From Candidatus Fraserbacteria bacterium (lineage in GTDB: Bacteria; Bipolaricaulota; Bipolaricaulia; RBG-16-55-9), in contig JBBIPG010000002.1 of assembly GCA_037442925.1 (NCBI GenBank), positions 5,176 through 69,175 on the forward strand: DNA of 64,000 bases, in the 5' to 3' direction. Position 1 is the stretch's first letter; every line of letters starts with the position of its first letter. The notes below the pieces were generated by a model. That model was not told the origin of the DNA. It searched no databases and worked only from the letters and a program-made list of their open reading frames with translations. Positions 11,761 through 60,741 of this stretch are shown piece by piece. The position numbers were made by a program, and so were the translations under genes.

Positions 11761-11783
11761 GGGATGCGCTCCAGAGAAGAATC

Positions 11784-14733: not shown

Positions 14734-14752
14734 GAACAGGCAGGTGAACCAC

Positions 14753-17490: not shown

Positions 17491-17810
17491 TGGCGAAAGG
17501 AAAACTGAAAGCGTGGCAAGAACTGGAGGTTGGGGCTGTCGTTCTCGAAGGCGGGAGCACCCAAGCCATTCTCACCGGCGGATGGCGCACAGGCAAGAAG
17601 CCCATCGTCGACGCCCAGAAGTGCGTCAACTGCCTGCTCTGCTGGATCCACTGCCCGGAGCCTGCTATCGTCACGGAGAAGGCTCAGATGCGCGGGTACA
17701 ACTACGAACATTGCAAGGGCTGCGGCATTTGCGCCGAAGCCTGTCCTTCCGGTGCGATTTCCATGGTCCCCGAAGAAAGGGTCGTCCCCGAGAGAGGGTG
17801 GATCGAATGA
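17487..17810 (+). CDS. porD: OFOR delta subunit, 2x[4Fe-4S] ferredoxin
   Basis: CVNCLLCWIHCP and CKGCGICAEACP motifs, 107 aa. Confidence 0.88.
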   Translation: MMAKGKLKAWQELEVGAVVLEGGSTQAILTGGWRTGKKPIVDAQKCVNCLLCWIHCPEPAIVTEKAQMRGYNYEHCKGCGICAEACPSGAISMVPEERVVPERGWIE

Positions 17811-19018: not shown

Positions 19019-20025
19019 TCCACCTCAAAGAACTGGCGCGGCGCGAGGAGAAGACGCAGAAGTTCTTCGGAGGACATGGCCTATGCGCGGGCTGCGGAGC
19101 CCCCATCGTGGTGCGCACCGTGCTCAACGCGATTGACAGGCCCATGGTCGTCATTAACGCTACAGGGTGTCTTGAGGTCGCCACGACGCGCTTCCCCTAC
19201 ACGGCATGGAGTGTCCCATGGATTCACGTGGCTTTCGAGAATGCTGCCGCCGTGGCCAGTGGAATTGAAACGGCTTATCGCGTCTTGCGGCGCAAGGGCA
19301 AGATCTCCCAGGACATGGTGTTTGTGGTCTTTGCTGGCGATGGGGGCACGTATGATATCGGGTTTCAGGCCCTCTCCGGAGCCCTGGAGCGCGGCCATCG
19401 CCTTATCTACATCTGTTACGACAACGAAGCGTACATGAATACGGGTAATCAGCGATCCGGAGCTACACCACGGGGCGCATATACTGCCACCACGCCGATT
19501 GGCAGTCGAGGCTCCGGCAAACCCCAGCGCCGCAAGGACTTGACCGAGATTGTCGTGGCCCACCACATCCCCTATGCTGCCCAGGCATCCATCTCCGACT
19601 GGCAAGATATCGTGATGAAGATCGAGCGAGCCGTGGCCGCGGACGGTCCAAGTTTCCTCAACGTCTTGTCCACGTGCACACGTGGTTGGGGGTTCCCAGC
19701 GGAGAAAGCCGTGAAGATGGCGCATCTTGCGGTCCAGAGCTGTTACTGGCCGCTCTATGAGGTCATTGACGGCGCGTGGCGCCTGAGCTACGAGCCGGAG
19801 CCGCGTACGGCCGAGGAGCGTGCCAAGTGGGGGCGCTACGGGCTCGACATCACGGAATGGCTCAAGCTCCAGGGGCGCTTCGCCCATCTCTTCCAGAAGA
19901 AGCAGGAAGGGATCTTCGTAAGGCCAGAGCACAGGGAACTGATAGCCGAGATTCAGCGTCAGGTCGAGCGCGACTGGGAGAAGCTCCTCGCCAAGTGTGG
20001 CCGCGCCATACCGGTGCTCGCCTGA
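19015..20025 (+). CDS. porB: OFOR beta subunit (TPP-binding)
   Basis: GHGLCAGCGAP and GDGGTYDIGFQALSGALERGH TPP motif. Confidence 0.88.
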   Translation: MIHLKELARREEKTQKFFGGHGLCAGCGAPIVVRTVLNAIDRPMVVINATGCLEVATTRFPYTAWSVPWIHVAFENAAAVASGIETAYRVLRRKGKISQDMVFVVFAGDGGTYDIGFQALSGALERGHRLIYICYDNEAYMNTGNQRSGATPRGAYTATTPIGSRGSGKPQRRKDLTEIVVAHHIPYAAQASISDWQDIVMKIERAVAADGPSFLNVLSTCTRGWGFPAEKAVKMAHLAVQSCYWPLYEVIDGAWRLSYEPEPRTAEERAKWGRYGLDITEWLKLQGRFAHLFQKKQEGIFVRPEHRELIAEIQRQVERDWEKLLAKCGRAIPVLA

Positions 20026-20038
20026 GGGAGAGACGCCT

Positions 20039-20293
20039 ATGGAACGCTTTCATCAAGGGGAGTTTCAGCTGATTCTAGAGCCAACCTTCTGCAAGGGCTG
20101 CAGTCTCTGCGTGAAGAGTTGCCCGACGGGCATTCTCTATTTGAACGGGCAAGGGAAGATCGCAACGCGCTCGGAGGACGTTGCGGAGAAGTGCATCTTT
20201 TGTGGATTATGCGAGGCGCGGTGTCCCGATTTCGCCATCTGGGTCGTGAAACCTGCTCGGGTTGTGCGCAAACAGAAGGCAGGGGTTATCTGA
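20039..20293 (+). CDS. 2x[4Fe-4S] ferredoxin, delta subunit of second OFOR (KorD-like)
   Basis: CKGCSLCVKSCP and CIFCGLCEARCP. ATG at 20039 inside ORF-track 19997 frame. Confidence 0.75.
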   Translation: MERFHQGEFQLILEPTFCKGCSLCVKSCPTGILYLNGQGKIATRSEDVAEKCIFCGLCEARCPDFAIWVVKPARVVRKQKAGVI

Positions 20294-20308
20294 GGCAGTG
20301 AAGGGAAT

Positions 20309-21496
20309 ATGAAGATGGCCGATAGCGGAGCCAACAATAAGAAGAAGCCACGGCTCATCCAAGGCAACGAAGCGTGCGCCTACGGTGCGCTCTACGCGGG
20401 CTGTCGCTTCTATGCGGGTTATCCGATCACGCCCAGCTCCGAGATCATGGAGATCATGTCGAGAGAGCTGCCTAAGATCGGCGGAGTCTTCATCCAGATG
20501 GAAGATGAGATCGCATCGATATCGGCCGTGATTGGAGCTGCTTGGGCGGGAGCTAAGGCGATGGCGGCCACCAGCGGCCCGGGTTTTTCACTCATGCAAG
20601 AAGGCATAGGCTACGCGGCGATCACCGAGACCCCGTGCGTGATTGTGGACTCGCAACGCTGGGGGCCATCGACAGGCCAACCCACAAAAACGGCCCAAGG
20701 CGATGTGATGCAGGCCATCTGGGGCACCCACGGCGATCACCCCGTGATTGTGCTCACGGCCTCGCATGTGCGAGAGGTCTTCGAAATGACCGTTACGGCG
20801 TTCAACTACGCTGAGCAATACCGGGTTCCCGTGATCTTACTGTTGGATGAAGTCCTGTCCCACATGCGGGAGAACGTGTTCATCCCCGAGCCAGGGGAGA
20901 TCGAGATCATCGAGCGGAAACGACCGCCTTCCCTGAGCGACTTCCGGCCGTTCAAAGACCTCAGTTTCTTGCCGTTTGGAGATGGTGCCCGCTTCAACGT
21001 GACGGGAATGGCCCACGATGAGTGGGGTTTCCCTGCACAAGGACCAGAGGCGGAACGCCAGCTACGCCGCATCATCGACAAGATTCACGTCGATGTCGAA
21101 TCCCTCGCGCTCTTTGAAGAACTGCATCTTGATGATGCTGACAGCGTGATCGCAAGCTATGGCATCACAAGTCGCGCGGCCGAGAGCGCCGTCGAGCAGT
21201 TGCGTGCTGAGGGCCTACGAATCGGGTTCTTGAATTTGAAGACGCTTTGGCCATTCCCAGATTTCCTCTTCGAGCGGCTTCCAGCACACATCGAATATAT
21301 TCTAGTCCCGGAGTTGAACCTGGGCCAGCTGGTGCGTGAGGTGCGGCGGGCCGTGCAGGGACAGCGCGGGCAATCTCTTAGAGTCGAACACCTGGGGCGG
21401 GTGGACGGCAGCTTGATCACACCGCAACAGATCATCGAAACCGTTCACGCCTTCCCCGGCTCTAGGGTTTCAACGGGAGGAGCCCCACGATGCTGA
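20309..21496 (+). CDS. Second OFOR alpha subunit (KorA/VorA-like)
   Basis: GNEACAYGALYAGCRFYAGYPITPSSEIME, 395 aa. Confidence 0.85.
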   Translation: MKMADSGANNKKKPRLIQGNEACAYGALYAGCRFYAGYPITPSSEIMEIMSRELPKIGGVFIQMEDEIASISAVIGAAWAGAKAMAATSGPGFSLMQEGIGYAAITETPCVIVDSQRWGPSTGQPTKTAQGDVMQAIWGTHGDHPVIVLTASHVREVFEMTVTAFNYAEQYRVPVILLLDEVLSHMRENVFIPEPGEIEIIERKRPPSLSDFRPFKDLSFLPFGDGARFNVTGMAHDEWGFPAQGPEAERQLRRIIDKIHVDVESLALFEELHLDDADSVIASYGITSRAAESAVEQLRAEGLRIGFLNLKTLWPFPDFLFERLPAHIEYILVPELNLGQLVREVRRAVQGQRGQSLRVEHLGRVDGSLITPQQIIETVHAFPGSRVSTGGAPRC

Positions 21497-22329
21497 AAGA
21501 ACCATATAGAGAGTACCTACGCTCCGATGAGTTGCCAAGCGTCTGGTGTCCGGGCTGCGGCAACGGAGTCATCGTCAAAGCTCTCGTCAACGCTATAGAC
21601 AGTCTGAAGCTGAAGAAAGACGATGTGGTGGTCGTGGGAGGCATCGGGTGTTCGGGACGTACACCGTTCATTTTGGATTTCAATACCATGCATACGACTC
21701 ATGGTCGTGCGCTGGCTTTCGCTACAGGGATCAAGCTCACACGACCGGAACTTAAGGTGATCGTCGCGATGGGCGATGGCGATGCCTCGGCCATCGGCGG
21801 CAATCACTTCATCCACGCCTGTCGCCGCAACATTGATCTCACAGCCCTCATCTTTAACAACGCCATCTATGGCCAGACGGGAGGGCAACTGGCCCCCACC
21901 ACACCCCAAGGCAAACGAAGCGCAACCTCACAATGGGGGAGCATCGAGCCGAACTTTGATCTATGTCAGCTGGCGCTGGGTGCCGGAGCCGGTTTTGTGG
22001 CACGCACGACGGTCTTCGACTTTCAAGAACTGAAGGGATTTCTCGAAAGGGCTCTCTGGCACAAGGGGTTTTCGGTGGTGGAGATCATGACTTCGTGTCC
22101 AACCTACTTTGGCCGGATGAACGACATCCGCGAACCCTACGAGATGCTGCACTATCTCAAAGACTTGACGATTCCCCAAGATGCGGCCGCCATGGAAGAG
22201 GAACGAGAACGGATGAGAAGGCTTCCGACGGGGGTTTTCAAGGACGAAGAACGAACGGAGTACACGCAGCTCTATCGAGAACTCTGTGAGACGGCCAAGG
22301 CGGCCACAGACGGTTCCCGTGGAGAATGA
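21490..22329 (+). CDS. Second OFOR beta subunit (TPP-binding, KorB-like)
   Basis: WCPGCGNG and GDGDASAIGGNHFIHACRRN. Confidence 0.85.
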   Translation: MLKEPYREYLRSDELPSVWCPGCGNGVIVKALVNAIDSLKLKKDDVVVVGGIGCSGRTPFILDFNTMHTTHGRALAFATGIKLTRPELKVIVAMGDGDASAIGGNHFIHACRRNIDLTALIFNNAIYGQTGGQLAPTTPQGKRSATSQWGSIEPNFDLCQLALGAGAGFVARTTVFDFQELKGFLERALWHKGFSVVEIMTSCPTYFGRMNDIREPYEMLHYLKDLTIPQDAAAMEEERERMRRLPTGVFKDEERTEYTQLYRELCETAKAATDGSRGE

Positions 22330-22919
22330 ACAGCAAGAGAAGCCGTAGAGGCAGAAAGAGCAAAGATCCTGTGCAGATTCGTCTGAGCGGCTCAGGCGGC
22401 CAAGGCTTGATCACAGCCGGTGTCATCTTGGCGGAAGCCGCGTTACTCGATGGCAAGAACGTCGTGCAGACGCAAAGCTATGGCCCTGAGGCGCGGCTGG
22501 GCGCGAGCAAATCCGAAGTGATCATCTCCAAAGGGAAGATTGCCTATCCCCAAGTCATGAATCCAGACATCCTTCTTTGCTTATCGCAAGACTCCTTCGA
22601 CAAGTACATCTCGCAGACCAACGCGGAGGCCATGATCATTGTGGATTCTGACTTTGTGGAGCATGGGTCATCCACGAACAAGCGGATCTATGCACTTCCG
22701 ATCACCAAGACAGCTACCGCCGTCGGCAGCAAGGTGGTGGCGAACGTTGTCGCCTTGGGAGTGATGAATGCTCTGGCAGGCTTGGTTGCTTCCACGAGTT
22801 TGCACGAAGCGGTAGTCAAGCGCGTGCCAGAGCGATTCCGTGCACTCAATGAGCGAGCGGTAGAAGCCGGTGAGAAGCTCATCGAAGAATCTCCGGATTC
22901 CGAAAGGAGGGCCATATGA
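22326..22919 (+). CDS. Second OFOR gamma subunit (KorC/G-like)
   Basis: IRLSGSGGQGLITAGVILAEAA. Confidence 0.82.
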   Translation: MNSKRSRRGRKSKDPVQIRLSGSGGQGLITAGVILAEAALLDGKNVVQTQSYGPEARLGASKSEVIISKGKIAYPQVMNPDILLCLSQDSFDKYISQTNAEAMIIVDSDFVEHGSSTNKRIYALPITKTATAVGSKVVANVVALGVMNALAGLVASTSLHEAVVKRVPERFRALNERAVEAGEKLIEESPDSERRAI

Positions 22920-36823: not shown

Positions 36824-37714
36824 CTACATATGGTCCCGGCACTTGGCGAGTAATCTCTCCCATTCTGTGTCCACGATCTTCTGGATACGCTCGGTGTCCT
36901 CTTCACGGAGATGGCTGAAGCGTCCCTGCTGCGTGAAGTACTCACGTGCGGGGATTCCATCAGGCATCACGCTGATTGTGTAATGGGTGCCTTCCTCGAT
37001 TTCATAGAGAGGGAAGACTTTCGTCTGCACGGCGAGCCGGGCGAGCTTTACCGAAAGCTCGGAAGAGATCTTCCAGCCGGGTGGACAAGGCGATAGCAGA
37101 TGGATGAACTTCATTCCGCGAATGCTCTTGGCCTTTTCGATCTTGCGTACCAGATCATCGGGATAGGCAATCGACGCCGTCGCGGCATAGGGAATCCTGT
37201 GCGCGGCCATAATCCCCATCATGTCCTTCTTGGGTTCGCCCTTGGGAGATAGTTTTGGAGTGGTCGTGGTCCACGCAAGATAAGGCGTTGCAGAGCTTCG
37301 TTGAATCCCGGTGTTCATATACGCTTCATTGTCATAGCAGACATAGAGGATGTTTTCGTTGCGTTCAGCAGCACCGGAGAGGGATTGCAGCCCGATATCA
37401 AACGTCCCGCCATCGCCGGCCCAAGCCAGCACTGTCGTTTCGGTATCCCCTTGCACGTCCAAGGCGGCTCGCACACCCGAAGCAGCTACAGCTGCTGTCT
37501 CGAAAGCCGTATGCAACAGCGGCACCTTAAGCGATGAGTACGGGAAAGGCCCGGCAATGATCGTCCAGCAACAAGCGGGCAGCACGACAATCGTCTTGGG
37601 GCCGAGAGCCTTGAGCACATAGCGCATGCCCAGCGTCGCCCCGCACCCCTGGCAACCCAGATGCCCCGAACCCATCAACTCCACTTCGGGCACAGTAAAA
37701 TTCACGTGGCTCAT
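36824..37714 (-). CDS. Third OFOR, beta subunit (TPP-binding)
   Basis: GCQGCGA and GDGGTFDIGLQSLSGAAERNE. Start MSHVNF at 37714 gives ATGA overlap with alpha stop (ORF track starts at 37732). Confidence 0.82.
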   Translation of the reverse strand: MSHVNFTVPEVELMGSGHLGCQGCGATLGMRYVLKALGPKTIVVLPACCWTIIAGPFPYSSLKVPLLHTAFETAAVAASGVRAALDVQGDTETTVLAWAGDGGTFDIGLQSLSGAAERNENILYVCYDNEAYMNTGIQRSSATPYLAWTTTTPKLSPKGEPKKDMMGIMAAHRIPYAATASIAYPDDLVRKIEKAKSIRGMKFIHLLSPCPPGWKISSELSVKLARLAVQTKVFPLYEIEEGTHYTISVMPDGIPAREYFTQQGRFSHLREEDTERIQKIVDTEWERLLAKCRDHM

Positions 37715-38880
37715 CGTTTCACCCCAATCCAAACGAGATCTTCTGGTTCATCGTGAGCCTGTGCATACTGAATGATCTCCTGAATCGTGGCAGGCGTGAT
37801 GTCACGCCCGCCCAGCCCTGCCACAAAGCCGAAGATGGGCACGCCCCGATGATTGTGCAAGGCTGACTTGATCTCTTGAGCGAAGATTCCCCCTGCACCG
37901 AAGCTGATGTTGCGATCGATCACGGCCACTTTGCGCGCACCCCGGAGCGCGTGACGGACGGCTTCGGACGGGAAGGGTCGGAAGAGTCGAATCTTCAAAA
38001 GTCCAACTCTTTGTCCCTGCTCCCGCAATTCATCGATCACGACGCGAGCTGTGCTGGTCACCGTGCTCGATGTGACAAGTACCAAATCAGCATCTTCTGT
38101 GTGATACGGCTCGATGAGTCCGTAGCGACGTCCGAAGAGTTCTCCGTACTCTTCGTCAGCGCGCTCCCACTCCGAGAGCGCTTGTTCCATTGATTGTTGC
38201 ATCTGGTAGCGCAGCTCCATGTAGGTTTCCGGAGGTGCCAAGCCACCGAAGGCATGGGGGTTGTTTACGTCAAGTCTGTAAAGAGGTCGAAATGGAGGCA
38301 GATAGCGATCCACAAGTTCCTGATCGGGAATCTCCACCGGTTCCGCCGTGTGCGAGAGCACGAACGCATCCAGCACCAACATCACGGGAAGAAGAACCTT
38401 TTCGGCTACTTTATAGGCACAGATCACGCTATCTAGGACTTCTTGATTGCTCTCACAGTAGAGCTGCATCCAGCCGGTGTCCCTTTGAGAGAGGCTGTCA
38501 TTCTGATCGGTCCAGACCGACCAGGGTGGTCCCATGGCGCGGTTGACATCGGCCATCACAATCGGCAAGCGGGCACCCGCTGCCCAGTGGAGCATCTCGT
38601 GCATCAACGCCAGACCGTGGGAACTGGTTGCCGTGAAAGCCCGTGCTCCTGCGGACGAAGCTCCAATCAGGGCTGCCATGGCTGAGTGCTCCGACTCCAC
38701 TTTGATGAATCTCGCGCTGAGAGTCCCATTGGCACAGAACTCGCTCAGCAATTCGACGATCTGGGTTTGAGGCGTGATAGGATAGGCGGAGATCACCTGC
38801 ACCCGGGAGAGCATGGCCCCATACGAGACGGCATGGTTGCCGGTGATCACTTTCTTCGTGCTGGTTGCGATAGCCTTCAT
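37711..38880 (-). CDS. Third OFOR, alpha subunit
   Basis: MKAIATSTKKVITGNHAVSYGAMLSRVQVISAYPITPQTQIVE. ATGA overlap with upstream gene. Confidence 0.82.
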   Translation of the reverse strand: MKAIATSTKKVITGNHAVSYGAMLSRVQVISAYPITPQTQIVELLSEFCANGTLSARFIKVESEHSAMAALIGASSAGARAFTATSSHGLALMHEMLHWAAGARLPIVMADVNRAMGPPWSVWTDQNDSLSQRDTGWMQLYCESNQEVLDSVICAYKVAEKVLLPVMLVLDAFVLSHTAEPVEIPDQELVDRYLPPFRPLYRLDVNNPHAFGGLAPPETYMELRYQMQQSMEQALSEWERADEEYGELFGRRYGLIEPYHTEDADLVLVTSSTVTSTARVVIDELREQGQRVGLLKIRLFRPFPSEAVRHALRGARKVAVIDRNISFGAGGIFAQEIKSALHNHRGVPIFGFVAGLGGRDITPATIQEIIQYAQAHDEPEDLVWIGVKR

Positions 38881-40562
38881 CGTTCCTCCTCGACTAAGGA
38901 GATCACACCCCGCGGGCACTCTTCGGCACAGATCCCACAGCCCTTGCAGAACTCAGCGTTGACTGCGTATGCGCTATCCACCCGCGAGATGGCCACATCT
39001 GGACAGAAGACGCGACAGTTATCGCAGAAGTTGCAGACCCCGCAGGAGAAACAGCGCTGGGCTTCTGCTATGGCCTGCTCTCGGGATATAGCTCCTTTGA
39101 CTTCCGAAAAGCTTGCTGTTCGGGTGGAGGGGACAAGATGCGGAGCATCGGCTCGTGGCGCGGGCGTGAAATAGTCAGGGTTGAGGTGTTCAAAAGCAAT
39201 CTCTTCGGTGAGGCTTCGCTTGTCTCTTCTCTTGGGAGGACGGACGTGCCCGTGTTGCAGGTAGAGTTGAATTGCCTTAGCTGCTTGTTTTCCCGATGCG
39301 ATGGCGTCGATGACGGTGCTCGGTCCGCTTTGAGCATCCCCACCGATGAAGATGCCTTCGCGTTCCAGAAGACCCTTGGGATTATGGATCACAAGCCCAG
39401 CACTCGTCTCCATGCTCTCTGAGAGGAATGGGAGTTCAGGCTCCTCGCCGACGGCTTTGAGTACACAGTCGGTCTCGATCACAAATTCGGAGTTCGGAAT
39501 GGGCACAGGATGCCGCCGCCCGCTCGCATCCGGGGCCCCCAGCTCCACGCGGATGCACTCGACTTCCAATGTGTTGCCCACTCGTCGGATCTGCCGGGGT
39601 GCCGCGAGAAAGATAAACTCAATTCCCTCTTGTTCTGCTTCCTCAATCTCTTCCGCAATGGCAGGCATCTCTGCTCGCGTGCGACGATAGACAACGGTGG
39701 GATGGGCACCCAGCCGAAGAGCGGTCCTGGCCGCATCCATGGCCGTGTTGCCGCCACCGATGACGATAACTCGCTTGCCAATCTCGATGTCGTGGTCTGC
39801 GTTCACCGACCTCAGAAACTCCAAGCCCGTCATGACTCCCGCGTTATCTTCGCCGGGGATCTTAAGCGGACGGCTGTGATGAGCGCCTGTGGCGATAAAC
39901 AGGGCATCAAAACTCTGCCAGAGCTCTTCCAGTTCGACATGCGAGCTGATCCGCGTCCCAGGCTGGAACTTTACTCCCAACGCGGCAATGTCTTCAATCT
40001 CCTTATCGAGAATATCGCGTGGCAAGCGATAGGATGGAATCGCAAGCCGTAGCATTCCACCCGGTTCCCTTGCCGCCTCCAGAACGGTGACGCCCACTCC
40101 TTGACGAGCGAGAAAATACGCACACGCAAGCCCAGCCGGCCCGCTGCCTACCACGGCCACTCGCTCGGATCTTGGCTCTCTCTGGTGAGTCTCAGGCCGT
40201 AGATCCAAACACGCGTCGGCAATGAACCGTTCCAGGGCCTGAATCGAAACGGCTCCATCAAAGTGCTCGCGATTGCAGGCAGCCTCGCACGGATGGTAAC
40301 AGACCCGGCCACAGATTCCCGGCAGTGGGTTCTCTGCTCGGATCAGTCTCCAAGCATCGATGAACTGGCCCTCAGCAGCGAGGGTCAGCACGCGAGGCCA
40401 GTCTGTGCCCGCGGGACAGCTTACGCGACACGGGGCGAGCTTCTCCAGATAGACAGGCTTCAAGTAGCGCCAGCCGCCGGTCTTGTTGAACCCCATATCG
40501 TTCAGGGAGATGGCCATCGGTGGCATCTCTCGCGCGCTCTGAAAGACAACTTGTTTGCTCAT
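38877..40562 (-). CDS. GltD-like NAD(P)H oxidoreductase fused to a C-terminal 2x[4Fe-4S] ferredoxin domain; occupies the delta-subunit position of the third OFOR
   Basis: GltD N-domain Cys motifs (CRVSCP...CGRVCYHPCEAAC). Rossmann VAVVGSGPAGLACAYFLA and second VIVIGGGNTAMDAA. C-terminal CFSCGVCNFCDNCRVFCP + CKGCGICAEECP. Confidence 0.78.
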   Translation of the reverse strand: MSKQVVFQSAREMPPMAISLNDMGFNKTGGWRYLKPVYLEKLAPCRVSCPAGTDWPRVLTLAAEGQFIDAWRLIRAENPLPGICGRVCYHPCEAACNREHFDGAVSIQALERFIADACLDLRPETHQREPRSERVAVVGSGPAGLACAYFLARQGVGVTVLEAAREPGGMLRLAIPSYRLPRDILDKEIEDIAALGVKFQPGTRISSHVELEELWQSFDALFIATGAHHSRPLKIPGEDNAGVMTGLEFLRSVNADHDIEIGKRVIVIGGGNTAMDAARTALRLGAHPTVVYRRTRAEMPAIAEEIEEAEQEGIEFIFLAAPRQIRRVGNTLEVECIRVELGAPDASGRRHPVPIPNSEFVIETDCVLKAVGEEPELPFLSESMETSAGLVIHNPKGLLEREGIFIGGDAQSGPSTVIDAIASGKQAAKAIQLYLQHGHVRPPKRRDKRSLTEEIAFEHLNPDYFTPAPRADAPHLVPSTRTASFSEVKGAISREQAIAEAQRCFSCGVCNFCDNCRVFCPDVAISRVDSAYAVNAEFCKGCGICAEECPRGVISLVEEER

Positions 40563-40567
40563 TGTCT

Positions 40568-41152
40568 CTACCTCCCTGCTGCCGCTCCTTCCCTGAGTGC
40601 GATCCGGACCTGGTTGTAGGCCGCGTGCGCCGCCGCGCTGTTCTCTTGAGGGCGAATCGGCACTCCTTCAGAGATGGCCTCGATCACAGCTTCCACACCC
40701 ACCAGCCCGGTGACGCGCGCAAACGCTCCTAGAATCGCTGTGTTCACGATGGGGTTGGTTCGCGATCCCAATCGGTGTTGCACCGCGATGGCACTGGCAT
40801 CGACGGTGGCAACTCGCCAGCCGCCCTGAATGAAAGCGGAGAACGACTCTGGCTCACGGTCACTGTTGATGAGAATCCAGCCTCCGGGCTTTAGTCCTGC
40901 CGTGACCTCCACGACGGGGAGAAGCGTGGGTTCTAGAACGATGACGTGGTCGGGTTGATAGATCTGACAGCGAAGCCGAATGGGAGCCGAATCGATGCGA
41001 AGAAAAGCCATCACAGGTGCGCCGCGCCGTTCCACGCCGAAGGCCGGAAATGCTTGGACGAACTGGCCCTCCTTAAATGAAGCCACTGCCAACAGTTCTG
41101 AAGCTACCACGGCTCCTTGGCCGCCACGCCCATGGAAGCGAATCTCAATCAT
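40568..41152 (-). CDS. Third OFOR, gamma subunit
   Basis: [24 protein letters not shown]. Start at internal ATG 41152 preferred over ORF-track 41251. Confidence 0.78.
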
Positions 41153-41198
41153 CCTGCACTCCCTTTCGGCCAATTGCGTTCGTTTCATCGTATCCGTG

Positions 41199-41237
41199 CC
41201 TAGCATGGAAAAACCATGATCTAGGCTAGCCCCATGG
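41199..41237. promoter_or_regulatory. Cluster of CTAG/CATGG inverted repeats (CCTAGCATGG-aaaaa-CCATGatCTAGG ... CCATGG) in the divergent promoter between OFOR3/hyp genes and the cooC-acs operon
   Basis: Seen directly in the 138-bp divergent intergenic region. Confidence 0.35.
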
Positions 41238-41290
41238 ATGATCTTCGTCATTTTACATCGCTATACGCAACACATACAATACAGACACGT

Positions 41291-42076: not shown

Positions 42077-42592
42077 ATGGAGCGACTCTTCTGTGACCCA
42101 CGAAAGTGCGTGGGCTGCCATTCGTGCGAACTGGCCTGCGCGCTGGAGCATACCCCCTCCAAAGATCTATTCCGGGCCGTCCTCACCGGGGAGTCGGGTC
42201 CGCCGCGTCGGCGCGTCCAGACGGTAGGGGACCGGCCCTATCGGGTAGCGATTGGTGGCGTTGTTCTCTCACTGGGCTGCCATCACTGCGATCCTGCCCC
42301 TTGTGTCGATGCGTGCATCGCTGGGGCGATGCATAAAGAAAACGGCGAGACGATCTGCGATCTGGACAAGTGCGTAGGTTGCTGGATGTGCGTGATGAGC
42401 TGCCCGTATGGGGCCATCACGCCTCACGTCAAAGCACTGAAGTGTGATCTCTGCCCCGATCGTCGAGACAAGACCGGGCGATCTCGCTACGCTTGCATCG
42501 AGGCCTGCCCTACGGAGGCCCTCTTTGCCGGGACGTTTGAAGCATTCGAGAAGACCCTATCTCAGCCAATTGTTCAGGGGGTGGCCCGATGA
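42077..42592 (+). CDS. cooF: CooF-like poly-ferredoxin (4 [4Fe-4S] motifs)
   Basis: CVGCHSCELAC, CHHCDPAPC, CVGCWMCVMSCP, CDLCPD...CIEACP. Confidence 0.85.
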   Translation: MERLFCDPRKCVGCHSCELACALEHTPSKDLFRAVLTGESGPPRRRVQTVGDRPYRVAIGGVVLSLGCHHCDPAPCVDACIAGAMHKENGETICDLDKCVGCWMCVMSCPYGAITPHVKALKCDLCPDRRDKTGRSRYACIEACPTEALFAGTFEAFEKTLSQPIVQGVAR

Positions 42593-43917
42593 GATACGTC
42601 ATCATCGGTGCTTCCGCGGCAGGAGTCAGTGCGGCAGAGACGCTGCGAAAGCATGAGCCCGCTGCTGAGATCGTCATGATCTCCGATGAACAACTCATAT
42701 ATTCCAAGCCGCTTCTCTCGTACTACTTGGCCGGGAAGCTAAAGGAAGAGCAACTGCTCTGGCGCGCGCCGGATTTCTTCGAGCGCAACCAGATTGAAGC
42801 GTTGCTGGGAGTCCGCGCCAGCGAATTAGCACCCCAGCAGAGCAAAGTTGTGCTCAAAGATGGCCGCGAGGTTTCGTACGATAGGCTTCTCTTGGCAAAC
42901 GGGGCTTCTCCGAGATTTGCGGCGCTCGAAGGCCGCGAGAAGGCCGGGCTTTTTGGTCTGCGCAAGCTCGAAGATGCGAGGAGCATTTTGGCGCTACTGG
43001 CACGATCCCGGCGGGCGGTCGTGCTCGGCGGGGGCTTAGTCGGTCTTAAGGTCGCGGCGGCTCTCAAAGAGCGGGGTGTTGAAGTGACTGTCTTGGTGGA
43101 TTCGCCTCATGTCCTCTCGCAAATGCTTGACGAGACCTCTGCGCGTATCTTCGAAACAGTGTTCGAGCAGAACGGTGTGCGCATCTTGTGCAAAGCTCGG
43201 CCAGTAGCGCTTACCGGAGGCGAGCGGGTTACCGGTGTCAAGCTAGCATCTGGCGAAGAATACCCGGCAGATCTGGTCGTTGCCGGTAAGGGCGTGGATG
43301 CTAACCTCGATCTGGCCAAAAGTGCTGGCATCGCCTGCGATTATGCGATCTTGGTGGATGAGTATTGCCGCACGAATGTCGAGAATATCTACGCAGCGGG
43401 TGACGTGGCGCAAACGCGCGATGTGCTTCGGGGTGAACCGTGGGTGAACGCGCTCTGGCCCTGTGCCGTCGAGCAAGGGCGCATCGCTGCTCTCAACATG
43501 TTAGGTCAGAAGACGGCGTATCGGGGTTCCATGCGCATGAACAGCGTCCAGTTCTTTGAGTTGCCTGTGATCTCAGCGGGATTGGCTGTCTTGACGCCGG
43601 GCCCGCTGGGAGGGCGATCCGGCGAGCATGACAAGACGATCGAGACGCGACCCGCTCCAGCAGTCTACCGCAAGATCTTCTTAAAAGACGACACCATCGT
43701 GGGGTTCGTCCTCATCGGCGGTGAGCGGGACCTGGAAGCCGCAGGACTGCTGCGCATCTTGATGGAGCGTCGCATGGGGGTCGCAGGAATGGAGGAGGAG
43801 TTACTGGAGATAGGACCGGACCTGGGGCGCTTATTGCCACGGATCGTGCAAGACCGTGAGCGATTCGTCGAGCGAGAATTTCAAGAACTCATCCAAACGG
43901 TGAAGGTGGGGGTGTGA
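42589..43917 (+). CDS. FAD/NAD(P)-dependent pyridine-nucleotide oxidoreductase (CODH-associated, CooF partner)
   Basis: YVIIGASAAGVSAAE FAD Rossmann, second VVLGGGLVGLKVAAAL NAD Rossmann. cooF-FNOR synteny known from CODH gene clusters. Confidence 0.78.
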   Translation: MRYVIIGASAAGVSAAETLRKHEPAAEIVMISDEQLIYSKPLLSYYLAGKLKEEQLLWRAPDFFERNQIEALLGVRASELAPQQSKVVLKDGREVSYDRLLLANGASPRFAALEGREKAGLFGLRKLEDARSILALLARSRRAVVLGGGLVGLKVAAALKERGVEVTVLVDSPHVLSQMLDETSARIFETVFEQNGVRILCKARPVALTGGERVTGVKLASGEEYPADLVVAGKGVDANLDLAKSAGIACDYAILVDEYCRTNVENIYAAGDVAQTRDVLRGEPWVNALWPCAVEQGRIAALNMLGQKTAYRGSMRMNSVQFFELPVISAGLAVLTPGPLGGRSGEHDKTIETRPAPAVYRKIFLKDDTIVGFVLIGGERDLEAAGLLRILMERRMGVAGMEEELLEIGPDLGRLLPRIVQDRERFVEREFQELIQTVKVGV

Positions 43918-43921
43918 CGAT

Positions 43922-46900
43922 ATGTCAAAAATCATCGCGTCGGCGGCCATCCGCGGTGCACAACACTACTTCTCGGAGGCGGAGACCCAACTCAAACAAG
44001 CCATAGCGACCTACAAACCGGAGAAGAAGATCGCCTTTCCCAACACGGCGTATCATTTGCCTCTCATTTTTGCACTCACAGGACTTAAGGTCGAGACTCT
44101 TAAAGACTGTGAAGAAGCATTGAACCATGCCCGCTCTTTGCTTCCGCCATTGCCGGCGGATTCCCTGTGGCTGCCGTATTTGGGTGATGCACTGGATGCG
44201 GGCATTGCCACACTGATCGCGGAAGAGATCATTGAAGCGCTCAAGTATCTCGACCCGAGCTACAAGCCGGATCCGCCGTGGCTGGGCTTCACGGACGACT
44301 CGATCCTGAGAACTCAGGGAATTAAGTTGGTAGATGGGAGGATGCCGGGCTTCGCGGCCTGCGTGGGGGCGCTTCCCACCAATGGAGACGCTGTGGAACT
44401 GATTCGAGCCCTGCAGGAGCGAAGCATTCTTGTCTTCATTGCAGGCAGCTCCAATGGGCGCTCGATGGCCGAGCAATTGAACGAGGAGGGCATCGAGTTG
44501 GGCTGGGACACCTACGTCGTCCCCTATGGCAAGGAGATGAGCGCTGCAGTCTATGCTCTCAATTTCGCCGCTCGTGCGGCCATGACCTTCGGCGGGATCA
44601 AACCCGGCAGCTTTGAAGCGGCAAGAAAAATCTTGCTCTACAACAAAGAGCGCGTCTTTGCGTTTGTGCTCGCACTGGGAGCTGACCCGAACGTCAATGG
44701 GAACGGCCAGCTGCTAACGGACGAGAAATATGCGACGGCTGCGGGTGCGATCAACTTTGGCTTTCCTGTCATTGCCGATGTGAACATTCCTCAGATCCTT
44801 CCCCGAGGCATCTGCACGTATGAGCACGTCGTCTCGGGAGTCTCGCTGGACAAGATCATCCAGAAGGCCGTCGAGGTGCGTGGCCTCAAACTCAAGCTGG
44901 CTCAGATTCCCATTCCGGTGCCCTACGGCGCAGGCTTCGAGGGCGAGCGCGTGCGCAAGGAGAATCTCTATGTCGAGTTCGGAGGCAAGTACAGCACAGC
45001 GTTTGAGCTCCTGCGAGCGCGACCGATGGATGAAGTGGAAGATGGGAAGATCGAACTCATCGGACCCGATTTGGATCAAGCCGAAGAAGGTGGGGCCATG
45101 CCCCTAGCCGTACTGGTCGATGTTGCTGGGCGCAACCTCAAGGCGGACTTTGAGCCCGTGCTGGAGAGAAGAATCCATCACTTCATCAGTTGCATCAATG
45201 GTGTGATGCACATCGGACAGCGAGACATCCCCTGGGTGCGCCTGAGCAAAGAAGCGTACGAGAAAGGCTTTCGCTTGAAGCATTACGGCGAAGTCCTCGT
45301 TGCCAAATTCAAAGACGACTTTGGTGCCATCGTCGACAAAGTGCAGGTGAAGCTCGTGACAGATCAGGCACAAGTCGATCAACTGCTGAAAGAAGCGCGA
45401 GAGATCTACCGACAACGCGACGAGCGCGTCATGGGTATGAAGGACGAAGACGTAGATACCTTCTACAGCTGCATCTTGTGTCAGAGCTACGCGCCCAATC
45501 ACGTCTGCATCGTGACGCCTCAACGCTTGGGCCTTTGTGGTGCGTATACCTGGCTCGACTGCGGCGCGTCCTACGAGATGGACCCGCACGGCCCCAACAA
45601 GCCGGTCACTAAGGGCATCTGTCTCGATCCTGTCTTAGGGGAGTGGCAAGGGGTCAACGAGTACGTGCGCGTTGCCTCCAACGGCAATCTCGAAAGGGTC
45701 TCGATGTACTCGATCATGCAGGACCCCCAAACGTCGTGCGTTGTTGGGGAGACCGAACTGATCATCGACGGCGTTCCCACACCCCTTGGGGAGTTCATCG
45801 AGCAGCACCGGGGGGGCGAGCGCTACAGAGATTCAGCGGCCTTGACGCTGCGCGAAGGCAAAGCCCGCCTGGAGCCGCTGGTAGCTCTGCAGCGCTTCGA
45901 TGCTCCTGAGGAACTGATTCGATTAGAAACGAAGTCCGGTGCTCAGCTGGTCTTGACGAAAGATCACGAGCTGGCAGTCGATCGGCCGGACGGCATGCGA
46001 TGGGTTCGCGCGGACCAAATCAAAGCGGGCGAGCGCCTGATCGCGCTCAAGCACTTGCGTCTGCCGGGACAGCTTCCCGCCGTGGTTGAGCTTTTGCCTA
46101 AGGACTTCCGATCTCGGAGGCAGCTGCCGAAGTCTTTAAGCCCTGAACTCTTCTATCTGCTGGGCTTGATCGCCAGTGACGGCTGCATCACACCGCGCGG
46201 CCGCTATGAGCGCATCATCCATTTCGTCAACACTGATGAAGAGCTTGTCCAGCAATTCACCGGGATTCATAAAGAGCTCTTCCCCGACTGCCATCTGGCG
46301 AGAAAGGTCAAATCGGCCAAGCCGACGACGCTGCGGGGACGCACGATCAAGCCTACTAGGCCCTGCTTCCAGCTTTCTAGCAACAATTCAGTGTTGGGTT
46401 TGCTGGCAGAGCGCTTGGGGCTTCGCGTCGGTAGTCAAGGGCACTGGGAGCTGGGACGGCTGGCGAGCTTACCGGAGGCTCACATCGCAGCCTTCTTGGC
46501 AGGGGTCTTCGACGGCGACGGCAGCGTCCGCTTACGTCAATATGCGGGAAAGTGGGACATTGCTGAGGGGTATGTGTGCATCGCCGACGAGCGGGCCGCG
46601 CGCCATCTGCAGCTCCTGTTGCGGCGGCTGGGCATTATAGGAAACCTCAACAAATCGGGATCGGTCTGGAAGATCGTGATGCACGGGGCGAATCTCCGAA
46701 AGTTCGCTGAGGTCATCCCGGCCAAGCACCCGGAGAAGCAGGCGGTCTTGGCGAGCGTTCGTCAGCTGCCGGGCAACGGCAGGCTCGACAAGACGCAAGA
46801 AGAAGTGCTGCCGTATTATGTGGGGCAGGCCTTGGCCCAGCTGCCCGCCTGCCACGAGGTTCTTAGCCCCAGCACGCTCTATTACTACCAGTCAGGCCGC

Positions 46901-47521
46901 TCGCGACCTGTAGCAGCCAATGTCCAGAAAGTGCTCGAAGCTGCTCCGGAGACTGGGCTGCTACGAGCCGCTCTGGAGACAGACTACTTCCTGGACACCG
47001 TGGTGACAGTGGAGACGGTGAGCAACACTGGGAAAGATCGCTATGAGCGCGTCTATTGCTTGACTCTTGCTGACATCCACTGCTTCTTCGCCAACACCAT
47101 CCTGATCAAGAACTGCGGGTGCTTCGAGTGCATCGTTGCTGTGTTGCCTGAGACCAACGGGGTGATGGTCGCCAGCCGCGAATATCAGGGTGAGACGCCC
47201 ATCGGCATGACCTTCTCGACGATGGCCGGCGAGGTCGGCGGCGGGGTGCAGACGCCGGGCTTTTTGGGCGTGGGCAAGCTCTATCTGACGAGCGAAAAAT
47301 TTATCAGCGCTGAGGGCGGGATCAGGAGATTAGTGTGGATGCCTAGCGAGCTTAAAGAAGAGATCAAAGAGAGACTCCAAAAGCGCTTGGAGGAGATCGG
47401 GATGCCCGAACTCTTCGACAAGATCGCCACTGAAAAAGACGCCACGACGACGGACGAGTTGATGGCATTCTTGCAGAAAGTGGGACACCCGGTGCTCGAG
47501 ATGGAAGCGATCATCGCCTAA
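43922..47521 (+). CDS. acsB: Acetyl-CoA synthase (CODH/ACS beta subunit AcsB), intein-containing precursor (740-aa extein + 459-aa intein)
   Basis: N-terminal AcsB-like region (KIAFPNTAYHLPLIFALTG ... AEEIIEALKYL). A-cluster motif SIMQDPQTS|CGCFEC interrupted by the insert. Extein length matches canonical AcsB. Confidence 0.88.
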   Translation: MSKIIASAAIRGAQHYFSEAETQLKQAIATYKPEKKIAFPNTAYHLPLIFALTGLKVETLKDCEEALNHARSLLPPLPADSLWLPYLGDALDAGIATLIAEEIIEALKYLDPSYKPDPPWLGFTDDSILRTQGIKLVDGRMPGFAACVGALPTNGDAVELIRALQERSILVFIAGSSNGRSMAEQLNEEGIELGWDTYVVPYGKEMSAAVYALNFAARAAMTFGGIKPGSFEAARKILLYNKERVFAFVLALGADPNVNGNGQLLTDEKYATAAGAINFGFPVIADVNIPQILPRGICTYEHVVSGVSLDKIIQKAVEVRGLKLKLAQIPIPVPYGAGFEGERVRKENLYVEFGGKYSTAFELLRARPMDEVEDGKIELIGPDLDQAEEGGAMPLAVLVDVAGRNLKADFEPVLERRIHHFISCINGVMHIGQRDIPWVRLSKEAYEKGFRLKHYGEVLVAKFKDDFGAIVDKVQVKLVTDQAQVDQLLKEAREIYRQRDERVMGMKDEDVDTFYSCILCQSYAPNHVCIVTPQRLGLCGAYTWLDCGASYEMDPHGPNKPVTKGICLDPVLGEWQGVNEYVRVASNGNLERVSMYSIMQDPQTSCVVGETELIIDGVPTPLGEFIEQHRGGERYRDSAALTLREGKARLEPLVALQRFDAPEELIRLETKSGAQLVLTKDHELAVDRPDGMRWVRADQIKAGERLIALKHLRLPGQLPAVVELLPKDFRSRRQLPKSLSPELFYLLGLIASDGCITPRGRYERIIHFVNTDEELVQQFTGIHKELFPDCHLARKVKSAKPTTLRGRTIKPTRPCFQLSSNNSVLGLLAERLGLRVGSQGHWELGRLASLPEAHIAAFLAGVFDGDGSVRLRQYAGKWDIAEGYVCIADERAARHLQLLLRRLGIIGNLNKSGSVWKIVMHGANLRKFAEVIPAKHPEKQAVLASVRQLPGNGRLDKTQEEVLPYYVGQALAQLPACHEVLSPSTLYYYQSGRSRPVAANVQKVLEAAPETGLLRAALETDYFLDTVVTVETVSNTGKDRYERVYCLTLADIHCFFANTILIKNCGCFECIVAVLPETNGVMVASREYQGETPIGMTFSTMAGEVGGGVQTPGFLGVGKLYLTSEKFISAEGGIRRLVWMPSELKEEIKERLQKRLEEIGMPELFDKIATEKDATTTDELMAFLQKVGHPVLEMEAIIA
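45737..47113 (+). mobile_element. Intein (Hint domain + LAGLIDADG homing-endonuclease) inserted in acsB; Cys1 ... terminal Asn, +1 Cys
   Basis: Block A CVVGETELIIDG. Block B LTKDHELAV (T-x-x-H). LAGLIDADG motifs LLGLIASDGCI and FLAGVFDGDGSV. C-terminal ...FFANTILIKN followed by extein CGC. Confidence 0.8.
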
Positions 47522-60704: not shown

Positions 60705-60741
60705 GCGAGAAGCCACTGCGCACCGTGATGTGGGAGGTGAG

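Follow-up and report, generated by a model that had tools for sequence, protein, structure and literature searches.

A pyruvate-type 2-oxoacid oxidoreductase locus with an NfnL/DsrL-like flavoprotein module inserted into its delta subunit

Four-subunit pyruvate oxidoreductases (PFORs), members of the 2-oxoacid oxidoreductases (OFORs), possess iron-sulfur clusters that connect TPP to the protein surface (PMC12337175). Within the 64,000 nucleotides of Candidatus Fraserbacteria contig JBBIPG010000002.1 analysed here (positions 5,176 to 69,175, hereafter the window), an OFOR gene cluster includes a protein, X, that combines delta-subunit sequences with an FAD and NAD(P)H module, raising the question of where such an enzyme delivers its electrons. 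A first-pass annotation had read X as a GltD-like protein with a C-terminal delta ferredoxin, and had proposed that the OFOR is thereby hard-wired to NAD(P)+, or runs as an NAD(P)H-driven reductive carboxylase, as a strategy specific to this lineage.

Organization of the OFOR locus

The cluster is a genuine pyruvate-type OFOR locus, in which four tightly packed genes lie on the minus strand in the order gamma, X, alpha, beta, just as first annotated.

41153-41290, no strand: intergenic region separating the divergent OFOR and cooC/CODH-ACS clusters (sequence read)
40568-41152, minus strand: OFOR gamma, 194 aa from ATG 41152; PF01558 POR, E = 2.8e-36; TIGR02175 PorC_KorC, 204.6 (above cutoff 81.1)
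38877-40562, minus strand: X, 561 aa, delta subunit with inserted NfnL/DsrL-like FAD and NADP(H) module; NF009410, 565.3 (above cutoff 516)
37711-38880, minus strand: OFOR alpha, 389 aa; POR_N, E = 6e-77; PFOR_II, E = 9e-32
36824-37714, minus strand: OFOR beta, 296 aa, TPP and [4Fe-4S]; TPP_enzyme_C; NF008818, 410.7 (above cutoff 405)

The gamma stop codon is separated from the X start by 5 nt, and both the X/alpha junction (ATG 38880-38878, TGA 38879-38877) and the alpha/beta junction (37714-37711) are ATGA overlaps; the genes of the cluster are translationally coupled. Translation of gamma could begin at ATG 41152 or, in a longer ORF, at the upstream ATG 41251; homology begins at 41152, as do the N-termini of relatives in which gamma is fused. 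The CODH/ACS genes of the Wood-Ljungdahl pathway directly adjoin the cluster in divergent orientation, and the sole promoter-like site in a scan of the intergenic region, a weakly evidenced one at 41252-41280, lies on the plus strand and faces cooC.

The best solved relative of alpha is the PFOR alpha subunit of M. acetivorans (9bt4_B, E = 4.6e-107). Alpha (PorA_Arch, 509.8 against 550), beta (PorB, 367.7 against 405), and gamma (217.3 against 225) fall just short of the Por equivalog cutoffs, and a Vor-beta subfamily model accepts beta, which counts against a firm assignment of pyruvate as substrate. The cluster has no delta gene apart from X, and the two other OFORs of the window have deltas of their own (17487-17810 and 19997-20293), each inside its own operon.

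Domain structure and distribution of X

X matches the curated NCBIfam model NF009410 (PRK12771) over its full length (profile positions 32-565 of 566) and above the cutoff, so its architecture is not a chance pattern. Together with the Pfam domains Fer4_20 (aa 43-118), Pyr_redox_2 (aa 134-424), and Fer4 (aa 510-555), this match bears out the original description of a GltD/NfnB-type FAD and NAD(P)H protein bearing an OFOR delta ferredoxin. An AF2 model of X has a pLDDT of 86.5 and a pTM of 0.85, and the chain divides into four parts.

40434-40562, minus strand: delta N-terminal arm NKTGGWRYLKPVYLEK, X aa 1-43; aligns with PFOR delta when joined to the core
39243-40433, minus strand: module, X aa 44-440; Fe-S domain, FAD site, and NADP(H) site
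39036-39242, minus strand: structured linker ending 'EAQRCFSCG' (C504, C507), X aa 441-509; pLDDT 83-97 from aa 451 on
38877-39035, minus strand: delta 2x[4Fe-4S] core, X aa 510-561 and stop; C510, C513, C516, C520-P and C539, C542, C545, C549-P

The delta core is indeed C-terminal. PorD_Arch, VorD delta, and TIGR02179 each match aa 508-561, and its PDB matches are the delta subunits 9bt4_G and 5c4i_B (OOR). A plain C-terminal fusion, however, does not describe X. The stretch NKTGGWRYLKPVY (aa 26-38), near the start of the protein, belongs to a delta arm in which 60 relatives all keep T28, G29, and W31, and this position of the arm means that the flavoprotein module interrupts delta instead of preceding it. 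X is thus a delta subunit in two pieces, its first ~43 and last ~52 residues, with an NfnL/DsrL-like insert of ~465 aa between them. When aa 44-508 were removed in silico, the remainder scored 75.5 against TIGR02179 (cutoff 60.05), and the arm joined to aa 509-561 aligned with residues 15-85 of the M. acetivorans PFOR delta (9bt4_G, E = 1.9e-18). In the same test the real delta of OFOR1 scored 97.2, a Sulfurisoma homologue with its insert likewise removed 89.0, and DsrL so treated 44.0, below the cutoff. The arm is modelled at lower pLDDT (61-64), as would be expected of a segment packing on partner subunits.

The Fe-S domain of the module contains C45, C49, C88, C92, C96, and E111, its FAD site spans G139-G144, and its NADP(H) site comprises G269-A274 and Y292-R293-R294; these residues are invariant (alignment A2), as are E500, R503, C504, C507, and G508 of the linker and, across the 60 relatives, all predicted cofactor ligands and nucleotide motifs. 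The YRR motif aligns with Y310-R311-R312 of NfnB and suggests that the nucleotide used is NADP(H). The Cys string first quoted as a canonical delta motif corresponds to X residues 504-549 and is that motif from C510 onward; C504 and C507 ('RCFSCG') are surplus to C510-x2-C513-x2-C516-x3-C520-P and most likely ligate the flavoprotein module's distal cluster. C507 and C510 are three residues apart, so the clusters that they are predicted to bind must be neighbours.

A scan of GTDB species genomes revealed OFOR genes adjacent to 41 of 42 loci bearing the delta signature and to 3 of 38 GltD-like loci without it (Fisher p = 4.9e-18), which upholds the anticipated co-occurrence of the fusion with OFOR alpha, beta, and gamma. 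The one exception is L002, where OFOR genes are absent from the surrounding 3-5 kb. Rosetta-stone fusions of gamma, module, and delta occur in three relatives (P0014, P0060, and P0098). The signature loci span a dozen or more phyla, and the fusion and its synteny are found in Proteobacteria, Actinomycetota, Acidobacteriota, Planctomycetota, Bacteroidota, Gemmatimonadota, Thermodesulfobacteriota, and others. Given this spread and the existing NF009410 model, the supposed lineage specificity fails: the design occurs widely, has a catalogue entry, and is not peculiar to this lineage. It is also present in aerobic or facultative organisms (Sulfurisoma, Gallionella, Solirubrobacterales, Rhizobiales), an occurrence that fits NAD(P)+ as acceptor. 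NF009410 is named only 'NAD(P)-binding protein', JGI labels of its members vary ('2-oxoacid:acceptor oxidoreductase delta subunit', 'YgfK', 'glutamate synthase beta-like'), and we found no biochemical data for any family member in the literature. X is a further member of this known but functionally unnamed family.

Proposed electron route and alternatives

We favour, with some reserve, the view that the four genes encode one four-subunit OFOR of the pyruvate/2-ketoisovalerate type, with X as its delta, that is wired to NADP+ and needs no free ferredoxin. Its most likely function would be that of a 2-oxoacid:NADP+ oxidoreductase, the substrate probably being pyruvate; hard-wiring to NADP(H), as initially proposed, is the most parsimonious reading. 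Alpha, beta, gamma, and X would form a complex operating in the oxidative direction, in which a 2-oxoacid, most likely pyruvate, would be decarboxylated at the TPP in alpha/beta. Electrons would then pass from the [4Fe-4S] cluster of beta through the two delta clusters of X to the inserted module, whose two [4Fe-4S] clusters would have as ligands C45, C96, C504, and C507 (distal) and C49, C88, C92, and E111 (proximal), and would end at FAD, which would reduce NADP+ (net: 2-oxoacid + CoA + NADP+ -> acyl-CoA + CO2 + NADPH). Counting against this reading, taking electrons from about -500 mV to -320 mV is energetically wasteful, which looks odd because a Wood-Ljungdahl cluster lies next door and the organism needs pyruvate synthase. 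The predicted ligand E111, moreover, is the Glu of bifurcating NfnL rather than the Lys found in NfnABC, whose module does not bifurcate.

The fully conserved delta core and the ferredoxin-dependent CODH/ACS encoded beside the cluster would also suit an enzyme in which the delta clusters go on receiving free ferredoxin as a main partner and the module is a built-in ferredoxin:NADP+ branch, so that 2-oxoacid electrons are split between ferredoxin and NADP+ or the two pools are equilibrated. Stand-alone GltD/NfnL-like ferredoxin:NADP+ enzymes such as Xfn (5vj7) are known. We regard this arrangement as unlikely, if worth keeping in mind: an insertion of ~465 aa at the arm/core junction may not leave the ferredoxin docking face exposed, and the model, compact and of high pTM, points to packing of the module on the ferredoxin core. 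A further alternative is an NADPH-dependent pyruvate synthase in which the FAD would bifurcate, splitting the electron pair of NADPH and sending low-potential electrons through the clusters to the OFOR for carboxylation of acetyl-CoA and the remaining ones to a putative high-potential acceptor. Homology of the module to NfnL/NfnB, whose FAD bifurcates (PMC5861303), the Glu-type ligand, and the adjoining CODH/ACS genes favour such a scheme, which we nevertheless hold to be quite improbable. Neither an NfnS/NfnA-like partner nor a second flavin was found in the cluster or in the examined parts of the window, the nearest relatives of known structure are the NfnL-like domains of NfnABC, which do not bifurcate, aerobes with no need of bifurcation commonly have the architecture, and DsrL, which shares the Glu, figures in our sources as an NAD(P)H:acceptor oxidoreductase and nothing more. 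The first-pass suggestion of an NAD(P)H-driven reductive carboxylase suffers likewise, being thermodynamically doubtful without bifurcation in a cluster that encodes no second acceptor module.

It is very improbable that X acts on its own as an NADPH:acceptor oxidoreductase, whether of DsrL type or as a ferredoxin reductase, and only shares the operon with an OFOR whose delta is encoded elsewhere or absent. DsrL has the same domain plan with a non-OFOR partner, and L002 lacks OFOR neighbours; against this stand the delta-specific arm, the delta-model score of insert-free X, the OFOR linkage of the signature loci, the gamma-X fusions, and the placement of the window's other deltas in their own operons. 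Ferredoxin-tailed GltD homologues unrelated to OFORs, named at the outset as a possible refutation, thus do exist (DsrL, in dsr clusters) but lack the arm and fail the delta model, and since DsrL in its turn links a partner enzyme with NAD(P)H it supports the mechanism of an NADP(H)-wired OFOR rather than refuting it.

Comparison with known systems

PorABDG of M. acetivorans (PDB 9bt4) shares the gamma/delta/alpha/beta order, with X filling the delta slot; PorD, of 85 aa, passes electrons to free ferredoxin, whereas X carries its flavoprotein between arm and core. The best sequence and fold matches of X aa 28-511 are NfnABC/Stn (9n5u, 9bov, 8oh5) and NfnL/NfnB (5jca, 4ylf), with NfnA 9n5u, Nfn-ABC 9bov, Stn 8oh5_C, NfnB 4ylf_B, and Xfn among the PDB sequence matches of the module and Foldseek TMq values of 0.79 against NfnABC A subunits and 0.66 against NfnL. 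FAD, an NADPH site with YRR, and two [4Fe-4S] clusters are common to these domains and X. In NfnABC/Stn the NfnL-like domains provide NADPH entry, a non-bifurcating FAD, and two clusters that feed a cluster chain (PMC12018979), making the module an NADPH port on that chain. The Nfn systems have NfnB/C or NfnS partners, which the X cluster lacks, and C39 and C42 of the NfnB N-terminus are absent from that of X, where C504 and C507 after the linker probably take their place.

The nearest characterised relative of X is DsrL, at ~43% identity over the module. DsrL couples NAD(P)H to sulfite reductase, forming a complex with rDsrAB, and YRR-type DsrL-2 uses NADP(H) only; the same study already mentions por/vor-linked DsrL-like genes, which its authors' own criteria exclude (Loffler et al. 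2020, PMC7596348). As cited in that paper, the Fe-S clusters of A. vinosum DsrL were reported to be dispensable for NADH-to-sulfite transfer in vitro, so a role of the clusters of X as a wire is not guaranteed. The two proteins share their layout: the N-terminus is a small Fe-S domain, the FAD part has an NAD(P) domain embedded in it, and a structured linker and 'RCxSCG' precede the 2x[4Fe-4S] ferredoxin at the C-terminus. YRR would go with NADP(H) use in X as it does in DsrL-2. DsrL differs in its partner, DsrAB rather than an OFOR, in its loci (dsrAB-dsrN...dsrMK clusters), in its N-terminus ('SPLRPV' against 'TGxWR..RPV' in the delta arm of X), and in its C-terminal motif (CxxCxxCWxYC..., CPCGYI).

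Attachment of a flavoprotein to an OFOR has precedents of different construction. Phenylglyoxylate dehydrogenase of Azoarcus/Aromatoleum (PadEFGHI) is an NADH-dependent OFOR with an added flavoprotein in place of free ferredoxin, in which delta (PadF) and flavoprotein (PadH) are separate. The window proteins miss all Pad equivalog cutoffs (159 against 300, 317 against 700, 235 against 700, and, for delta, 55 against 150), and the 25 best matches to X include no PadH model. The pyruvate:NADP+ oxidoreductase (PNO) of Euglena and Cryptosporidium is a single-chain PFOR with a fused module of the cytochrome-P450-reductase type, through which electrons reach NADP+. Pad and PNO embody the same functional idea as the OFOR of X, the reduction of NAD(P)+ through an attached flavoprotein.

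The gamma-X-alpha-beta cluster and the topology of X

Four minus-strand open reading frames lie back to back in the order gamma-X-alpha-beta, and Pfam and NCBIfam models place them in a 2-oxoacid oxidoreductase (OFOR) of the pyruvate/2-ketoisovalerate type. X, the subject of this analysis, is thus encoded together with the alpha, beta, and gamma subunits of a Por/Vor-type enzyme:

40568-41152, minus strand: gamma subunit (Pfam PF01558)
38877-40562, minus strand: X, 561 aa (Fer4_20 at aa 43-118, Pyr_redox_2 at aa 134-424, C-terminal Fer4 dicluster at aa 510-555)
37711-38880, minus strand: alpha subunit (Pfam POR_N and PFOR_II)
36824-37714, minus strand: beta subunit (Pfam TPP_enzyme_C)

The start codon of X is 5 nt from the gamma stop codon, and ATGA overlaps occur at both the X/alpha and the alpha/beta junctions. 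ORF reading, Pfam, and NCBIfam thus bear out the first-pass annotation in its account of gene order, coordinates, overlaps, and domains of X, and the profile search that it proposed for the 561-residue protein recovered an FAD/NAD(P) module and a delta-type C-terminal ferredoxin, with PorD and VorD delta models matching residues 508-561. The hypFCDE genes are found downstream of beta, and a complete-looking CODH/ACS cluster diverges from gamma. A scan for promoters and terminators returned counts no higher than in shuffled sequence.

The same annotation regarded X as a GltD-like flavoprotein with a delta ferredoxin fused to its C-terminus. The ferredoxin is present, but alignment and profile scores indicate that the flavoprotein module is inserted into a delta subunit rather than joined to one end of it. 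At aa 26-38, X possesses a delta arm of the TGxWR...RPV type, NKTGGWRYLKPVY, which aligns with NKTGGWRNFRPVY of the Methanosarcina acetivorans PFOR delta subunit (PDB 9bt4_G) and with TGNWRIQRPI of OOR delta. Residues T28, G29, and W31 of the arm are invariant among 60 relatives, as are all cysteines of the two CxxCxxCxxxCP motifs (C510/C513/C516/C520-P and C539/C542/C545/C549-P). The delta signature consists of an arm directly before the ferredoxin core; in X an insert of about 465 residues separates the two, lying behind the arm and ahead of the first cluster motif. When aa 1-43 were joined in silico to aa 509-561, removing aa 44-508, the resulting 96-residue construct aligned unbroken with residues 15-85 of 9bt4_G (E = 1.9e-18) and also with the delta domain of oxalate oxidoreductase. 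Against TIGR02179 (PorD_KorD, curated cutoff 60.05), intact X scores 46.7, because the core alone aligns, whereas the construct scores 75.5 across profile positions 10-78 of 78. In comparison, the genuine delta subunit of the first OFOR in the window (17487-17810) scores 97.2 and an equally trimmed homologue from Sulfurisoma 89.0, while equally trimmed DsrL, the NAD(P)H:acceptor oxidoreductase of the Dsr system, scores 44.0, under the cutoff. Both halves of a delta subunit are therefore present in X, and a simple C-terminal fusion is rejected in favour of an insertion.

The inserted module most closely resembles the NfnL-like domains of NfnABC/Stn transhydrogenases, which are the best matches to aa 28-511 (9n5u, 9bov, and 8oh5_C; E down to 1e-114), followed by NfnB/NfnL, GltD, and DPD. 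An AlphaFold2 model built on 60 relatives is confident (pLDDT 86.5, pTM 0.85) and well ordered at aa 451-560; confidence drops in the arm at the N-terminus, which is what one would expect if this part packs on partner subunits. Foldseek TMq values are 0.79 to NfnABC A subunits and 0.66 to NfnL. Like NfnB/NfnL, X contains FAD and NADPH Rossmann folds together with a YRR motif. The FAD motif GSGPAG (139-144), the NAD(P) motif GGGNTA (269-274), and Y292-R293-R294 are invariant among the 60 relatives, and the last aligns exactly with Y310-R311-R312 of Thermotoga maritima NfnB (4ylf_B). The YRR motif grips the 2'-phosphate and is a hallmark of the NADP(H)-only DsrL-2 enzymes (PMC7596348).

The iron-sulfur ligands depart from the NfnB pattern. 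In NfnB all eight are supplied by the N-terminal domain (C39, C42, C47, and C100; C51, C90, C96, and E117), and the N-terminal domain of X does not contain the full set. By alignment, NfnB C47, C51, C90, C96, C100, and E117 correspond to X C45, C49, C88, C92, C96, and E111, such that C49, C88, C92, and E111 match the proximal cluster ligands and C45 and C96 match two of the distal ones. The remaining pair, NfnB C39/C42 (RCxxC), has no N-terminal equivalent in X, where the Fer4_20 match begins at profile position 30. Instead, the linker closes with an invariant RCFSCG motif (C504, C507), three residues ahead of the first delta cysteine, and C504 and C507 probably complete the distal cluster of the module in place of NfnB C39/C42, which would position that cluster beside the delta clusters. 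The split-delta topology and this probable bridge go beyond existing annotations of the family.

Family membership and distribution

X is by profile match a full-length member of NCBIfam NF009410/PRK12771, a catalogued and very widespread family named "NAD(P)-binding protein" (565.3 bits against a cutoff of 516; aa 27-559, profile positions 32-565 of 566). A protein search retrieved thousands of relatives, some labelled OFOR delta subunits by JGI. The closest named ones are from Ca. Fraserbacteria (63-66% identity for X, 79% for alpha) and Ca. Bipolaricaulota/Acetothermia (60-65%). In three relatives, P0014 (6001-8310 of locus L082), P0060, and P0098, the gamma subunit, the NfnL-like module, and delta form one polypeptide of 745-769 aa. 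Our literature search found no biochemically characterised member of the NF009410-type X family, and the sole pertinent passage in the full texts searched for GltD/NfnB-delta fusions, NAD(P)-dependent OFORs, Pad, the Azoarcus 2-oxoglutarate:NADP+ enzyme, or DsrL-like por-linked genes is an exclusion criterion in PMC7596348.

Two other identities were considered and rejected. X scores below the GltD models TIGR01318 (309.8 against 482.95) and TIGR01317 (211.3 against 447.7), and no gltB is nearby. The NADH-dependent phenylglyoxylate dehydrogenase PadEFGHI also fits poorly, the PadE, PadG, and PadI equivalogs giving 159/300, 316.9/700, and 235.3/700, and the delta construct giving 55.1/150 for PadF.

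Scanning GTDB with a single genome for each species yielded 80 GltD-like loci, which were scored against the alpha, beta, and gamma subunits of the window and with a regular expression for the delta signature. OFOR genes adjoin 41 of the 42 loci that bear the signature and are found near 3 of the 38 that do not (Fisher p = 4.9e-18), establishing the co-occurrence of GltD-ferredoxin proteins with OFOR genes that the first-pass annotation had proposed to check. The one true exception is a Calditrichaeota homologue (L002, 5347-7059), which has no OFOR genes within 3-5 kb and is surrounded by a Memo/AMMECR1 fusion, a spermidine-synthase-like protein, and a rubrerythrin. Two gene orders recur: gamma-X-alpha-beta, as in the window, and gamma-alpha-beta-X, chiefly in Proteobacteria and Actinomycetota and including the cultured Sulfurisoma sediminicola. 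At further loci the OFOR paired with X is a distant one of the Kor/Ior-like kind. Among the phyla represented are Pseudomonadota, Actinomycetota, Acidobacteriota, Planctomycetota, Bacteroidota, Ignavibacteriota, Gemmatimonadota, Thermodesulfobacteriota, Ca. Tectomicrobia, and Ca. Fraserbacteria. With this spread the architecture is not confined to one lineage, and the earlier proposal of a lineage-specific strategy is rejected.

Several loci exhibit variations on this arrangement. A deltaproteobacterial locus (L012) encodes an X-like protein without the delta core and with a different C-terminus (5881-7902); approximately 2 kb downstream, all four genes gamma-delta-alpha-beta are present, with delta as a gene of its own (9603-12466). 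The locus may represent an unfused state of the X-type system. In a 1.63-Mb genome (L084, 8722-13276) two extra ORFs are located between alpha and beta of an X-type cluster, one of them 634 aa long and lacking any recorded Pfam hit. In Bipolaricaulota, an IorA::GltD fusion comes after the por-type cluster. At two such loci (L082, 10390-13404; L083, 10706-13696) the gene behind gamma-X-alpha-beta encodes a protein of some 1000 aa, in which an indolepyruvate-oxidoreductase-like alpha subunit (POR_N, TPP_enzyme_C, and Fe-S) is joined to a GltD-like FAD/NAD(P) module; an IorB-like gene comes next. This fusion is a second, independent joining of an OFOR to a GltD-type module, and coupling to pyridine nucleotides does seem to recur among the OFORs of Bipolaricaulota.

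Proposed electron path and direction, and genomic setting

OFORs connect their TPP site to the pool of ferredoxin through three [4Fe-4S] clusters, of which delta holds two (PMC12337175). In X, the chain of the delta clusters would run on through the inserted module's two clusters and FAD, and the most economical reading of the complex, judged from its sequence, is a 2-oxoacid:NADP+ oxidoreductase. The sequences point to no single substrate: alpha is most similar to M. acetivorans PFOR alpha, but scores against the Por equivalogs all lie slightly under their cutoffs (alpha 509.8/550, beta 367.7/405, gamma 217.3/225), and beta passes the Vor-beta subfamily model NF008818 (410.7/405). The KGOR of A. 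evansii may possess an NADP-binding third subunit, to which we give no weight here.

The first-pass annotation had left room for NADPH-driven reductive carboxylation. The potential of pyruvate/acetyl-CoA + CO2 is about -500 mV and that of NADP+/NADPH is -320 mV; oxidation is therefore strongly favourable, and carboxylation is unfavourable unless the flavin bifurcates. Were the inserted NfnL-like flavin a bifurcating site, the complex would constitute a new class of enzyme with flavin-based electron bifurcation: a pyruvate synthase driven by NADPH, which would feed Wood-Ljungdahl acetyl-CoA into biosynthesis without reduced ferredoxin by using a postulated high-potential co-acceptor. The glutamate at E111 is shared with NfnL, GltD, and DsrL, whereas the non-bifurcating NfnABC module has a lysine there. 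Neither the cluster nor the ORFs scanned in the window include an NfnA/NfnS-type partner (PyrK-like, with [2Fe-2S] and FAD), and the genes near the cluster supply no second acceptor module. We consider bifurcation very improbable. With the 2-oxoacid:NADP+ oxidoreductase reading, one may speculate that respiration, or the methyl-branch steps that depend on NADPH, could draw on NADPH from the hard-wired OFOR. Overall, the earlier interpretation is supported in part: profiles and synteny uphold X as the delta/flavoprotein subunit of an OFOR cluster, but the genome scan does not uphold lineage specificity.

Two more OFORs are encoded in the window, each with its own delta:

16762-20025, plus strand: Por-type OFOR set, preceded by a GNAT::GltD gene; separate 107-aa delta at 17487-17810
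19997-22919, plus strand: Kor/2-oxoacid:acceptor-type OFOR set; small KorD-like ferredoxin at 19997-20293, then alpha, beta, and gamma

The gene directly upstream of the Por-type set (14744-16900, plus strand) encodes a 718-aa protein in which a GNAT acetyltransferase domain is fused to a canonical GltD-like module with a complete N-terminal RCLEC...C...CP motif. ORF calling gave an artefactually long "alpha" that begins at 17474; the Por-type alpha starts near 17807. The Kor-type alpha passes NF006412 (528 against a cutoff of 411).

Elsewhere, genes for a narGHJI-like respiratory nitrate reductase of the Nar type, for a c-type cytochrome, and for two MFS transporters occupy 3027-10200 (minus strand); a multihaem cytochrome is encoded at 60730-62211 (plus strand), and a NuoE/HoxE-like [2Fe-2S] protein at the window end (62256-62747, plus strand). 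Together, the Nar, cytochrome, CODH/ACS, and hyp genes suggest a facultative nitrate respirer with a Wood-Ljungdahl pathway. Between cooC and acsB (42077-43917, plus strand) are a CooF-like polyferredoxin and a 442-aa class-I pyridine-nucleotide-disulfide oxidoreductase, possibly another link from NAD(P)H to Fe-S proteins, for CO dehydrogenase. The acetyl-CoA synthase subunit (AcsB/CdhC type, 1199 aa; 43922-47521, plus strand) is split by a 459-aa intein (approximately 45737-47113) with a LAGLIDADG homing-endonuclease domain, which starts at Cys606 and ends ...LIKN directly ahead of the Cys-Gly-Cys motif CGCFEC. Its removal in silico leaves 741 aa with the junction ...DPQTS|CGCFEC....

Comparison with DsrL and Nfn-type enzymes

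The closest characterised relative of X is DsrL, which binds rDsrAB in a complex and thereby links that enzyme to NAD(P)H (PMC7596348). X shares its domain order: N-terminal Fe-S, FAD/NAD(P), linker, and C-terminal 2x[4Fe-4S] ferredoxin. DsrL has no delta arm and falls below the delta-model cutoff, whereas X has the arm and its construct passes. Criteria 1 and 3 for DsrL in PMC7596348 are dsrAB in the organism and a gene not linked to por/vor; the X gene lies within a por/vor-type cluster, true DsrL loci look different, and the scanned ORFs of the window include no dsr genes. OFOR-linked DsrL paralogues were noticed in that work yet not studied there.

Six scan loci (L035, L041, L060, L013, L042, and L051) encode a GltD-like protein with a C-terminal Cys-rich ferredoxin and no OFOR genes, the type of protein that the first-pass annotation had thought capable of overturning its reading. 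The L035 protein (5971-7656), encoded within a dsrA-dsrB-dsrN-...-dsrM-dsrK cluster, is DsrL; L041 and L060 have the same neighbourhood layout, and those of L013, L042, and L051 differ. The DsrL proteins among them do not count as counter-examples. Since DsrL is without the delta arm and fails the delta model, it supports the wiring logic and does not refute the OFOR assignment. A weak echo of the arm, ETSPLRPV...K.PPC, is visible in all six proteins. When the flavoprotein modules are placed in a rough neighbour-joining tree, drawn without support values, DsrL nests among the OFOR-linked gamma-X-alpha-beta types, a hint that DsrL may have descended from an OFOR delta chimera with SPLRPV as a vestigial arm.

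If the proposed function is correct, many phylogenetically broad bacteria, aerobes among them, oxidise pyruvate or other 2-oxoacids straight to NADPH, bypassing ferredoxin with an OFOR of the oxygen-sensitive type, and "PFOR" genes in metabolic reconstructions of MAGs would read differently wherever ferredoxin is budgeted, NADPH supply is estimated, or autotrophy is inferred. The split-delta topology provides a concrete picture of a pyridine-nucleotide port grafted onto an Fe-S wire and ties OFORs, DsrL, and Nfn-type modules together in evolution.
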